From positions 96,001 to 160,000 of the forward strand of contig OZ253449.1 in the NCBI GenBank assembly GCA_965261345.1: 64,000 nt of DNA, in the 5' to 3' direction. Shown piece by piece: positions 41,801 through 46,339 of this stretch; position 1 is the first letter of the stretch; the number at the start of each line of letters is the position of its first letter. The notes beneath the pieces were generated by a model that did no database searches, was not told the origin of the DNA, and saw nothing but the letters and a program-made list of their open reading frames with translations. The translations under genes were made by a program, and so were the position numbers. The stretch comes from Chloroflexota bacterium. Lineage in GTDB: Bacteria > Chloroflexota > UBA11872 > VXNJ01.

Positions 41801-43011
41801 TGACTTGTTCGGGCGAGTACTTTCGCTTCGCCATTGCTGTCCCTTTTCGTTGGAACCAGATTATTCACATTCCCTCTGGTACCAATGAGGCAATTGTCTT
41901 GATTGTCAATTCCGGCAGAGGTGGGGTCAGAGGGGTCCAGGAGAAAGGGGAGGATAGATCCAGCGCCCCGACCGCGGTTCATAGTGACCGCAGCCCGATC
42001 GACAGGCGATAACCGGATGCGTAATCGCCGCAATAGCCCGATCCCGGGCATGGCTTCGCCAGGGACCTTGCCCGCAAGAGCGATCGGACCTGCCCGGCGT
42101 TCAGCCCGAGGCGGACTCCTCGCGCCAATACTCGCCGTTCCTCAGCATCGCGTTCAGGATCACCAGCAGCTTTCTCATGCAAGCCGTCAGCGCCACTTTT
42201 TTGGGTTTCCCACTCTCCACCAACCGGTCGTAAAAAGCCTTGATCACCGGATTGTGGCGCGAGGCTGACAGGGCCGCCATGTAAAGCGCCGACCTGACCC
42301 TTGAGCGTCCGCCCCAGGTCGTTCGCCGGCCACTATACGCGCCGCTGTCGCGGTTCAGGGGCGCAACCCCTACCAGGGCTGCGATCTGCTTCTCGTCCAC
42401 CGTTCCAAGCTCGGGCAGGTAGGCGATCGCGGTTGCCGCCAGCTGCGGGCCGGCGCCGGGCACCGAGGTCAGCAGCGCGCTGCGGGTGGCAAGATCGGAG
42501 TCGGCCTTAATCAGCTTGCCGATATCGCGGTCAAGGGTGGCGATGCGGCGCCCCAGTCCGGCAATGGCGCGCCTGATGTTGGCACGTACACGCGGAACTA
42601 CCCGCCTCCCCAGCCGGTTTTTCTCGGCGGTGAGATGGTCCATGAGCTGGCCGCGGCGGGCAACCAGTCCCGCCAGTTCGCGCTCGGCGGGCGACTTGCG
42701 CTCCCTTGCCGGGGGCTTGACCGCCTCGGCGTAGCGGGCGATCACCCGGGCATCGATCCGATCCGTTTTGGCCAGGATCCCAAGCGCCCGGGCAAAGTCG
42801 CGCATCTGGCGCGGATTTACCACCGCCACCTTATAGCCGGCGTCCCGGAGAGCGTCGGCCAGCTGCTCCTCGTAGCCGCCAGTGGCCTCTGCGACCACCA
42901 GCGCCACCAGATAGTTCTCGAGGCGCTTGATCAACGCCCCGAACCCGGCCGCAGAGTTGGGCAGGGTAAAGACCTCGCCCTGGGGCCCGAGGGCGATATC
43001 GACGGTGTTTT

Positions 43012-43323
43012 TGGAAGTTACCTCCGACTGCACGCGGTAAGCATGCCGAAGAAGCCGCGGTCGTCATCACCCACCCATTCCATCCCCGCCGGGGCAGGCG
43101 CTACCGGCTGATCCGGTCCGGGCATTGCTGGGGCGCCGAACGGGTCATCTGCGACATCGGCGGCAACCGCCAGCAGAGCTTCCCGCTCGAGTGGACCGAC
43201 CAGGCCCCGCCCGACCCCTTCCAGGTCATCGCCGCCGGCCGCTCGGCGTTTCGGCCCGATGACCTGAACGCGCTCGCAAACCTTATCGAGGGCATATCGG
43301 AGGACAAAGGAGATGTAAAGTGA
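43012..43323 (+). CDS. DUF5372-like gene body lacking a start codon in the integrated state
   Basis: [35 protein letters not shown]; no in-frame ATG/GTG/TTG after TAA 42967. Confidence 0.75.
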
Positions 43324-43510
43324 TTAGAGCAACACACGTAAAAGGATATGCGCACATGACCCAACTGTGGAAGTCGTTGTGGATCGCCTGGATCAGGATA
43401 TATCATCCCTTATACAGGCTGGCGTCGATCGTCAATTGGCAGGCGTCGCCGGTTGTCGGATCGGGCTATGGTTGCGTAACAGCTTTATCATTACTCTTTC
43501 AGGAAGGACG

Positions 43511-43969
43511 ATGCCGATGTCTGCCGCCAATGATCCCAAGATCGAGTTCCTGCGAAGCTGCGGGGCGCTCAATCCCCATCCCGAGCGGGTGGGCGACGAA
43601 CTCTTCGCCGGGCATGACTTCTTCGACCCGCGCGATCTTTGCCAGGTGCGTTACGAGATGCTGCGGCGGGTGTTTGTCGATGAACGTAGGGTGTCTGACA
43701 GCGCCCGTCTCTACGGTTACTCCCGCCCGACCTGGTACAACGTCGCCCGGGTCTACCGGGTCGGCGGCCTGGCCGGACTCCTATCCGAGCGCCCCGGTCC
43801 GCGTAAAGCGCGCAAGCTGGTCCCCGAGATCGTTTTGTTCATTGAGCAGGTGCGACGGGAGCACCCCGGTCTGGGGGCGGCGGCGCTGGCGCGGTTGGTC
43901 AACGAGCATTTCGGCGTATCGGTGCACCGCTGCAGCATCGAGCGGGCGTTGCGGCGCGCAAAAAATTAA
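43511..43969 (+). CDS. Helix-turn-helix protein
   Basis: GALNPHPERV.D.LF..DFFDPRDL.QVRYEMLRRV, YGYSRPTWY, GLAGLL..RPGPR. Confidence 0.85.
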   Translation: MPMSAANDPKIEFLRSCGALNPHPERVGDELFAGHDFFDPRDLCQVRYEMLRRVFVDERRVSDSARLYGYSRPTWYNVARVYRVGGLAGLLSERPGPRKARKLVPEIVLFIEQVRREHPGLGAAALARLVNEHFGVSVHRCSIERALRRAKN

Positions 43970-44406
43970 CCATCCCGGACCAGAGTCCGGGTACAGCACC
44001 GCAGCCGCCGGTCGCCGCCTACGAGAAACTGCGCCGCCAGGCGCTCGCTCCCGACGGGGGCTCGGACTGGCGCAGCCTGGCGATCATCCGCCGACGAGGG
44101 ATCCCGGCCTGGCTGGCCCGGCGTCCCGCATCCACGGCCCCGGGGCCATCGTCGCCGCACCGGGCCGGATCGGCCGAACTGCTCGACATCCTGCTGGGAT
44201 TGGCGCTGGGATCGGAGTCCGGCGGTGATCGATCAGATGCAACGCAGGGTGACCGCGCAGCATCTTGCCCGCCGGGCCTTCCTGTACGTGCGGCAGTCAA
44301 CCCTGCGGCAGGTGATGGAGAACCGGGAGAGCACCCGCCGCCAGTACGATCTGCGCCGCCGGGCGCGTTCGCTGGGCTGGGCGCCGGAGCAGATCTGCGT
44401 CATTGA
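43960..44406 (+). CDS. Small domain in the -1 frame, probably reached by frameshifting
   Basis: AAYEKLRRQAL..SLAIIRRRGIPAWL; no start codon before this motif. Confidence 0.55.
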   Translation, partial: KKLTIPDQSPGTAPQPPVAAYEKLRRQALAPDGGSDWRSLAIIRRRGIPAWLARRPASTAPGPSSPHRAGSAELLDILLGLALGSESGGDRSDATQGDRAASCPPGLPVRAAVNPAAGDGEPGEHPPPVRSAPPGAFAGLGAGADLRH

Positions 44407-46298
44407 CTCGGACCTGGGGCGGTCGGGAGCCGACTCGGACCGCAAGGGTTTCCAGCGTCTGGTCAGCGAGGTGTCGCTGGGGCGGGCCGGGATCGTGCTG
44501 GGCCTGGAGGTCTCGCGCCTGGCGCGCAACAACGCCGACTGGCATCGCCTGCTGGAGCTGTGCGCGCAGTCAGACACATTGATCCTGGACGAGGATGGGA
44601 TCTACAGCCCGGCCCAGTACAACGACCGCCTGCTGCTGGGCCTTAAAGGCACCATGTCGGAGGCCGAGCTGCACGTGATGAAGGCCCGCCTGCTGGGCGG
44701 AGTGCGGGCCAAGGCCGAGCGCGGCGAGCTGCGCTGCCGGCTGCCGGTGGGCTTTGTCTACGATCCGCTGGATAGGGTCGCGCTCGATCCCGACGCCCAG
44801 GTACGCGACACCCTAAAGACGTTCTTTACCGTCTACGAGCGCACCGGTTCGGCGCGGGCGGTGGTCGTCTACTTCAACACTCGCTCGCTCTCCTTCCCGA
44901 CGCGCCCCTACCACGGGCCGCGCAAGGACGAACTCTTCTGGGACCAGCTCACCCACGCGCGCGCCATCCTGGTCCTGTCACAACCCGCGCTACGCCGGAG
45001 CGTTCGCCTGGGGGCGCTATCGCACCCGGCGCGTCAACGGACGCGACCGCAGGGTACGGACGCCCCGGGACGAGTGGAGGGTGCTGATCACCGATCACCA
45101 CCCCGGTTACATCACCTGGGAGCGGTTCGAGCGCAACCAGGAGACGCTCTCGCGGTCGGCCCGTTCCTGGAGGCGCGAGGGCCAGGGCGGTCCGCCGCGC
45201 GAGGGATCGGCGCTCCTGCAGGGCATTGCCGTCTGCGGGAAATGCGGCAAACGCATGACGACCCACTATGACAATCGCGGCCGGCAACTCAGGCCCCGCT
45301 ATGTCTGTCGCCGCGAGGGCGTCGACAAGGGGCTGCCGGTCTGCCAGTCGGTTCCCGGGACGGCGATCGATGCGGCGGTCGCGGAGCTGGTGCTCGAACT
45401 TATGAATCCGCAGATGCTCGAGTTGGCGCTCTCGGCCCAGGACGAGCTGCGGCGGCGCATTCACGAGGCCGATGCATTGCGGGCCAAGGCGGTGCAGCGG
45501 CTGGAGGAGGAGGTCGACCTGGCGGGGCGACGCCATCGGATGGCCGATCCGTCCAACCGCCTGGTAGTCGATGTGCTCGAGGCCGAGTGGAACGCCTGCC
45601 TGCTGCGCCTGCAGGACGCGTCAGACGAGCAGGCCAGGCAGCGCGAGCAGGACCGGGCCGAGCTGAGCGAGCGCCAGCGCAAGCGGATCAAGGCCCTGGC
45701 GACCGACTTCCCGGCGCTCTGGAGCGACCCGGCAACCCCGGCAAAGCAGCGCAAGCGCATGCTTGGCCACCTGATCGCCGATGTGACCATCGTCAAGAGT
45801 GGGGAGATCGGCGTGGGGGTGCGCCTGCGCGGCGGCGCTGACCGCCGGTTTAAGCTTCCCCTGCCGCTGTCGGCAGCCGATCGGTACCGCACCGACCCGG
45901 GCGTGGTTGCCCTGCTCGATCAACTGCTGGCGGATCACTCCTATGCCGAGATCGCCGCGATCCTTAACCAGCGCGGCGTCCGCACCGGGCGTGGCAACGC
46001 CTTCAACGCCAGGAAGGTCTACGTGCTGCGGCGCGATCACGATCTCAAGACCAGGTATGAGCGACGGCGCGATCTGGGTCTGCTCACCGGCCGCGAGGTG
46101 GCGGCGCTCCTGGGTATAGCACCGACTATGGTCAACGGCCTGCGGCGGAGTGGACGCCTGCAGGGCGCAAACACCGGTGGCAACCGCTGGCTTTACGAGA
46201 GGCCCGCCAACCTGGGCGAACTACGATCAAGCATCCGCCGACCGGTCAGATCACCAGCCGACGGTTGCGAGTCGAACGAGGTGCAGTATGCAAGGTGA
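44225..46298 (+). CDS. Large serine recombinase (about 690 aa; apparent extra T near 44978)
   Basis: YVRQST, DLGRSG, EVSRLARN, L(H)NPRYAG, CGKCG..YVC zinc ribbon, C-terminal HTH. Confidence 0.9.
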
Positions 46299-46339
46299 TC
46301 CTTGGCAACGTCGACGCCCACATACACGTCCTCGCGCAT

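Follow-up and report, generated by a model that had tools for sequence, protein, structure and literature searches.

We describe here a serine-recombinase element in a 64,000-nucleotide stretch of a Chloroflexota genome (contig OZ253449.1, positions 96,001 to 160,000, of assembly GCA_965261345.1; this whole stretch is called the window), together with its relatives. The element carries a gene of the protein family DUF5372 (PF17342) that is split across the element's own attachment site, attP. The start of the gene lies at the right end of the element and its body at the left end, and the two parts form one open reading frame (ORF) when the ends are joined. We consider it likely that, throughout a widespread family of large serine recombinase (LSR) elements, joining of the ends rebuilds the gene for a cofactor that sets the direction in which the LSR works.

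The element (window 43011..46305) is a 3291-bp insertion in the minus-strand gene of an IS110 transposase. The genome has six intact IS110 copies, which align with window 42000-43014 and 46302-46531. Since these alignments break off at 43014 and resume at 46302, the letters TTGG (43011-43014 and 46302-46305) are common to both junctions. Removal of the element restores the empty site exactly, and this 22-base string is found at six places genome-wide, one of which is the uninterrupted target site in an intact IS110 copy on the minus strand of the window (63328..63349). An earlier note, made from the letters of the window, had placed the element between two TTGG cores and held that its removal restores IS110; the intact copies and the 22-base string bear this out. 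The crossover is of 2 nt, without target duplication. On the plus strand, the crossover dinucleotide TT lies at 43011..43012 on the left (the attL core) and at 46302..46303 on the right (the attR core). The left TT stands 16 nt upstream of the left arm, the same spacing as in 43 other elements with a TT core. A 14-nt inner spacer and the arm ACTGCACG make up the left half of attP (43013..43034, plus strand), and this arm forms an inverted repeat with GGTGCAGT of the right end. The right arm GAGGTGCAGT, the other half of the inverted repeat, occupies 46278..46287 (plus strand). Outside the element, the downstream part of the split IS110 transposase lies at 42101..43010 (minus strand; DEDD_Tnp_IS110, E 5.3e-22, and Transposase_20), and the first codons of the transposase, up to the insertion point, lie at 46304..46339 (minus strand). 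Contigs from three public runs connect 43010 to 46302, skipping 3291 bases with four ambiguous letters. These joins are the intact IS110 paralogues and are no proof of excision.

The element has four genes on the plus strand, in the order DUF5372, a helix-turn-helix (HTH) gene, a small ORF and the LSR. The DUF5372 gene body (43012..43323, plus strand) opens at the core codon TGG and ends with the TGA stop at 43321-43323, and its match to PF17342 covers window 43015-43320 (E 5.4e-21; 74.9 bits, with the cut-off at 25). The reading frame is uninterrupted from 42970 onwards, and neither ATG nor GTG nor TTG occurs in it up to the stop. At the opposite end of the element, the right arm holds a Shine-Dalgarno-like GAGG 6 nt ahead of the ATG at 46288-46290. 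This ATG and the first codons of the joined ORF (46288..46301, plus strand) overlap the LSR stop, TGA 46296-46298. Joining of the ends at the core gives an in-frame DUF5372 ORF of 108 codons. The startless body at the left end, the ribosome-binding site and ATG overlapping the recombinase codons at the right end, and the uninterrupted 108-codon frame had all been pointed out in the earlier note, and each proved to be as described.

Relatives were collected by scanning one genome per species; 532 were confirmed among the first 600 matching stretches, and the 80 best were kept. The confirmed relatives come from many phyla. Of 401 sampled genomes of the phylum, 18 contain a match to PF17342, which exceeds the family cut-off in 12; none of 14 control genomes contains one. 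Some of the loci are duplicates of one contig or of one metagenome-assembled genome (L036 is the same as L103, and L079 is close to L087). Both arms are detectable in 50 of the 93 DUF5372 loci. The common attP is GGTGCAGT-N14-NN-N14-ACTGCAC, with the arms forming inverted repeats, each 14 nt from the central dinucleotide; that of the window element is GGTGCAGT-N14-TT-N14-ACTGCAC. In 46 of the 50 loci the central dinucleotide is identical at both ends (TT in 43, and CG, TG and TA in one each). The four misfits are L035, in which the cores differ, L115, with a false right arm, L123, with a mis-picked left arm, and L125, with an indel and a stop. Among the 46 elements with matching cores, the joined ORF is in frame and open in 45, the exception being L100 with a 1-nt shift, so the joined frame of ATG and DUF5372 that had been noticed in one copy is conserved among its homologues. 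We also mapped boundaries independently of the att geometry, by two-copy comparisons (L114 with L117, and L068 with L056). Two Polaromonas copies share exactly 4929..8297, and the Sinorhizobium and Rhizobium copies share 4943..8261, with TT ending both sides. The rhizobial relatives L068 and L056 carry an arm variant, AAGGTGCATC, followed by GTGATG. Most of the diverged relatives have an intact LSR of about 684-700 aa, and three element-length contigs are bounded exactly at the cores (L073, 3322 bp; L077, 3325 bp; L080, 3354 bp).

The genome of the window element also contains three copies of a relative with 71% DNA identity, all inside one IS1380-like element. A single CG crossover in this relative restores both the DUF5372 frame and the frame of the IS1380-like transposase. 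The uninterrupted IS1380-like relative reads Y-C-K-R-G-D-A-E-N-R and has the length of the corrected reconstruction. A six-base overlap, CCGCGG, was considered as the joint of the three copies (A, B and C) and was rejected, as it put the ATG out of frame. Two of the copies (L003 and L004, G000:C1:33482-40450) face each other head to head at a distance of about 1.3 kb, each in the same IS1380-like element, and the third is found at G000:C1 1054950-1058245. All three appear to stem from a single insertion that was then copied along with its host insertion sequence (IS).

The evidence points to the right end as the place where DUF5372 starts. De-duplication at 90% identity left 45 right ends. In 30 of these the arm is followed immediately by ATG and in 11 by GTG; the last four carry their TTG or ATG at +3, without a change of frame. 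By comparison, none of 66 mirrored (reverse-complemented) left arms has a start codon at that position, where TGA (32) and CGA (22) are found. The start codon was outside the pattern used in the arm search. The start motif is not simply LSR coding sequence, because it is kept in L042, L083 and L091, whose arm is located past the stop of the LSR. In the relatives the LSR stop and the DUF5372 start overlap as ATGA or ATGnnnnnTGA, which is the usual sequence signature of translational coupling. The left ends show the opposite picture. The stretch from the core to the conserved HPFHP motif was read at the DNA level in 57 left ends after de-duplication. An in-frame ATG occurs in none of them, and 29 lack ATG, GTG and TTG in frame altogether; what the other 28 have is mostly a GTG serving as the Val codon two codons before the H. 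In the +1 frame of 60 left-end segments, 33 ATG codons are found. The DUF5372 frame of the left ends has one stop in 1076 codons versus 9 and 64 in the other two frames, and in 58 of 60 the arm and HPFHP are separated by a multiple of three. In line with a start outside the left end, the first codon of the DUF5372 coding sequence on plasmid pNGR234a is ATA in RefSeq (L146 4546-4809).

Joined ends are present in the DNA of relatives. A degenerate attP pattern found eight stretches in metagenome contigs and none in viral contigs. Three of the eight, from different records (L130, L133 and L134), read from the LSR C-terminus through arm, core and arm into an unbroken DUF5372 ORF. These joined ORFs begin at the right-end start codon, are 119, 102 and 103 aa long, respectively, and match PF17342 with E 6e-27 to 3e-19. 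In the protein collection, P0146 has an N-terminus of this junction type as well. Two further stretches from different metagenomes (L129, 1301-1345, and L132, 437-481) have the same junction of LSR and attP and the first ~27 codons of DUF5372, followed by unrelated sequence. The other three were rejected as junctions: L128 and L131 represent an AT-rich gene with no relation to the element, and the flank of L135, an attR, matches by chance. As to whether circles are ever seen, a point raised by the earlier note, joined DNA is thus found in three metagenome contigs of relatives; for the window copy it is absent from its own genome and from the contigs of four public runs.

These results suggest the following course of events. 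An LSR element of about 3.3 kb entered the IS110 gene by crossover at the TT dinucleotide, with no target duplication. Its right arm carries GAGG and a DUF5372 start overlapping the LSR stop, and its left arm and a variable linker carry the rest. In the integrated element the halves sit at opposite ends, and DUF5372 is separated from its start, from its ribosome-binding site and from the operon transcript. Once the ends are joined, in an excised circle or in a head-to-tail tandem, a 108-codon gene translationally coupled to the LSR would be formed. DUF5372 would then act as a direction-setting cofactor made only after excision. We infer that it most likely favours integration or blocks re-excision, since an integration-phase or anti-excision role fits a protein made only after excision better than the role of a classical excision factor does.

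A role as a cofactor, which the earlier note had put forward, gains support from structure prediction. The model of DUF5372, built on 67 sequences, has a mean predicted local distance difference test (pLDDT) score of 83 and consists of a small β-barrel followed by two helices, with the first ten residues disordered; the modelled fold may be described as an SH3-like barrel with C-terminal helices. A Foldseek comparison with the PDB gave nothing at E <= 0.001 and weak SH3-like matches to NdhS, PsaE and KOW, and a sequence profile search of the PDB gave nothing at E <= 1, with no solved relative by sequence. The predicted complex of the intact LSR of L041 with its own DUF5372 scored 0.72 (median of three runs), and the best of three controls scored 0.00. 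The mark is reached by 116 of 157 solved complexes and by 2 of 215 mismatched pairs, a calibration that is rough here, with self-supplied alignments. Agreement among the runs amounts to 74% of contacts or more, and the pLDDT of the partner to 71 or more. HPFHP and the C-terminal helices meet the LSR in this model at residues 334-339, 390-409 and 478-538. The first of these segments lies inside the zinc ribbon (Pfam 328-385), so that the invariant HPFHP would touch the zinc ribbon, and the other two probably form the base of the coiled coil. DUF5372 is therefore predicted by the model to bind the LSR at the zinc ribbon and the coiled-coil base. This predicted site is consistent, in general terms, with the reported placement of directionality factors. 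The gp3 protein is reported to bind the φC31 integrase via the zinc domain (PMC5814800), the SPβ factor repositions an integrase subdomain (PMC11722253), and directionality factors are described as sharing no common structural theme (PMC11795197). The predicted interface supports the cofactor part of the claim; the direction of the effect is not given by it.

Several observations weigh against the proposal that DUF5372 is made from the joined ends, and the first group of them concerns where the protein starts. In-frame joining follows automatically from the 14-2-14 spacing, which the recombinase probably dictates, and so provides no independent evidence of coding. The low variability of the right arm is partly circular, because right arms were located by matching GAGGTGCAGT with at most one mismatch. 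The GTG two codons before the H is present in 24 of the 57 left ends, and its use as a start is possible. The linker has no codon periodicity (entropy 1.42, 1.43 and 1.48 by codon position) and the modelled residues 1-10 have pLDDT below 50, so that the N-terminal tail seems unconstrained as protein. Proteins of the wider family in databases start at many positions, some of them inside the left end, and a scan found neither a promoter of the sigma-70 consensus, which the promoters of the organism may not follow, nor a terminator consensus.

These points could be explained if DUF5372 were translated from integrated copies, starting at the GTG Val codon, at a rare codon such as ATA or at a start in the flank, with the Shine-Dalgarno sequence and ATG of the right end being by-products of constraints on the att site and on the LSR C-terminus. 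The GTG codons, the unconstrained tail and the database starts would all fit, as would P0001, a 99% identical copy whose start is supplied by the flank. In databases, gene calls put the start of DUF5372 anywhere from 1 to 128 residues ahead of HPFHP. JGI entries that start 8 residues before the H mostly have V or L first. Many annotation pipelines write M for GTG or TTG. A count of own starts from database N-termini was dropped, as a first-letter M is unreliable. What speaks against translation from integrated copies is the DNA itself. The codon at -2 before the H is ATC, GTC, GTA, ATA or ATT in 33 of the 57 left ends, so that the Val codon is not conserved as a start. ATG is absent from the DUF5372 frame of the left ends and frequent in the +1 frame, and the start goes with the right arm alone (all 45 right ends have it, against 0 of 66 mirrored arms) and is kept even beyond the LSR stop, where a constraint on the LSR C-terminus would not apply. 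The earlier note had regarded an own start of homologues inside the left end as evidence against a gene gated by recombination. No such ATG is found, and about half of the left ends have no start of any kind; the objection keeps some force for those with GTG. On balance, we regard translation from integrated copies as unlikely, and the rebuilding of the gene by joined ends as the better explanation.

The second group of observations concerns the joined DNA. The three joined contigs are 1.1-2.7 kb long, less than one element, and fit a circle, a tandem or a larger replicon alike. No go-back joint was found for the window copy in Logan contigs of four public runs, in which contigs drop rare forms, and no attP junction was found in its own genome. 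The joined contigs might thus represent a head-to-tail tandem or a larger replicon with integrase and attP, in which the gene would be gated by the tandem or be expressed constitutively. L129 and L132, where the junction leads to a truncated DUF5372 and then to unrelated DNA, are in keeping with this. Integrated copies with exact core-to-core boundaries are nonetheless the rule, and the three element-length contigs also end exactly at the cores. In addition, serine recombination of directly repeated sites releases a circle. We consider it quite improbable, and more so than translation from integrated copies, that tandems or larger replicons account for the joined DNA. That the ends match by chance in a dead insertion with a decayed DUF5372 start, as the frameshifted LSR of the window copy and the wealth of open frames in GC-rich DNA might suggest, is very hard to reconcile with an architecture repeated in dozens of diverged elements from many phyla, mostly with intact LSR, and is contradicted by the matching cores, the right-end starts and the joined contigs.

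The remaining genes of the window copy are as follows. The LSR (44225..46298, plus strand) has the domains Resolvase (E 2.8e-20), Recombinase (E 4.6e-14) and Zn_ribbon_recom (E 4e-10) and a C-terminal HTH; the three domains are likewise found in the intact relative L041. Its frame is split by one extra base at 44978, so that the window copy is probably immobile on its own. The earlier note had called for repair of a T at this position. A contig of the public run X3 is without the base, and an unbroken LSR allele therefore exists elsewhere. The HTH gene (43511..43969, plus strand; matches to HTH_32, HTH_29 and HTH_28) has AGGAAGGA upstream of its ATG. It is followed by a small conserved ORF (43970..44227, plus strand) with the motif YExLR...AAW...ELVxVLAxMAL and no Pfam family. 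The small ORF uses the -1 frame with respect to the HTH gene, and this frame is open even before the HTH gene ends, through its A-rich final stretch. The A-rich run in question, GCAAAAAATTAA, lies at window 43955-43975, and the same place is A-rich in the relatives: of 42 distinct elements, 12 have a run of A6 or longer no more than 24 nt from the HTH stop, and many others have AAAAG. This pattern suggests a programmed -1 frameshift that would fuse the HTH protein with the small ORF, as in IS3 OrfAB.

Traces of the element are also found outside the window. At G000:C1:2361017-2361078 (L005), a solo left end of 60 bases, 95% identical to the window element, occupies the corresponding site in another IS110 variant, which is 74% identical; the left end is truncated there, and an IS3-like transposase gene follows. 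At G000:C1:2270391, a right-arm-like GAGGTGCAGT is followed by GTG and by TT at the core position, with no LSR upstream, and this string is possibly what remains of a right end. Contigs of other samples depart from the window at 43011 and 46314: X8 record 16 and X3 record 10 show the element with another left flank, and X9 record 23 is a 3307-nt contig bounded at the element ends. As the flanks differ among the runs X3, X8 and X9, the element occupies more than one natural context.

We further examined the sites of insertion by a Pfam scan of 29 right-flank ORFs of at least 60 aa each. The family rve was found in 13 of the 29, and every match ends at profile position 100-102 of 102, at the junction. 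Among the others, one matches DDE_Tnp_ISL3, one matches HTH_21 only, and 14 have no family. Further flanks contain DDE_Tnp_1_4 (E 3e-99; the 71% relative), Transposase_mut (L067) and IS110 (the window copy). There are also flanks other than transposases, namely a CitMHS transporter in L041, the closest intact relative, and citrate synthase in L104; the flank of L074 has a weak HNH match, and five further flanks are without a family. Most mapped insertions are in transposase genes and antisense to them (the L052-L124 flanks and the window copy), and the target transposases are of the rve type, ISL3, IS256-like, IS1380-like and IS110. The crossover often lies a few codons before a Glu (...DN/AxAE..., ...K/GKVE... 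and ...P/RGDCE..., the slash marking the crossover), and we take these Glu motifs to be the catalytic motifs of the transposases. A broader reading can be offered tentatively, at somewhat below even confidence: the elements could constitute a widespread, undescribed family of minimal LSR transposons that combines a state-sensing cofactor, present only from excision until re-integration and acting as a self-resetting switch for one cycle, with homing to transposase catalytic codons as a parasite of IS elements.

How small LSR transposons choose between excision and integration without the regulatory programme of a phage is an open problem, and the answer would be purely topological if the gene of a cofactor existed on the joined form alone. 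The family is large, with 2487 protein clusters at 50% identity and 123 plasmid records. Its att sites are short and well defined. Through its preference for conserved motifs of transposases, the family would naturally antagonize IS elements and be a source of new pairs of integrase and cofactor. Annotation is affected as well, since gene callers give DUF5372 arbitrary starts.

Elements of this kind can be recognized in pNGR234a, which has four matching places; the one inspected reads DUF5372, then an HTH gene and a small ORF, and its left end has the geometry TT-N14-ACTGCAGT. RefSeq labels the small ORF there (L146) a transposase, and the LSR is absent from the supplied gene table of the plasmid. 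The clusters, which we presume to be those named y4bA-D and y4pH-K (names that are in no annotation examined), match the window element in family and gene order and differ in the arm variant. Our literature searches found no paper on DUF5372, on y4bA, y4bD, y4pH or y4pK, or on this element family, and no transposon with a serine recombinase in which the ORF of a putative cofactor is split. The preprint of Durrant et al. deals with DUF4368 and multi-targeting LSRs, and the part of it available to us does not mention the family. Junction-dependent expression and an attP within a gene are already known; as far as these searches reach, a serine transposon that splits the ORF of a cofactor is the new part.

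Three groups of known systems are comparable. In Tn4451 and Tn4453 of clostridia, TnpX is a large serine recombinase that moves the element via a circle, with expression that depends on the junction. In the integrative and conjugative elements (ICEs) ICEclc and ICEKp1, the excision junction is reported to switch on a gene needed in the circle, through Pcirc and P3'end, respectively (PMC13023037). The window element resembles Tn4451, ICEclc and ICEKp1 in that joined ends activate a gene. The junction of Tn4451 and the ICEs makes or delivers a promoter for the recombinase gene, whereas that of the window element makes the ORF itself, and this of an accessory gene; moreover, the LSR of the window element is upstream of the junction and not downstream as in the Tn4451 type. 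In the SSV1-type archaeal integrases and the Mx8 int, attP lies within the coding sequence and the gene is intact only on the circle. The likeness here is the attachment site inside coding sequence. SSV1 and Mx8 have a tyrosine recombinase and split the integrase, whereas the window element has a whole serine recombinase and splits a putative cofactor; its attP is not inside the LSR gene, as the LSR ends with its stop ahead of the core at 46302. Right-end sequences suggest that the LSR frame of some relatives may extend a few codons past the core. Finally, DUF5372 resembles phiC31 gp3 and SPbeta SprB in being a small accessory protein, with integrase binding predicted at the same place. The known directionality factors are under phage transcription control and promote excision, whereas DUF5372 would be made only after excision.

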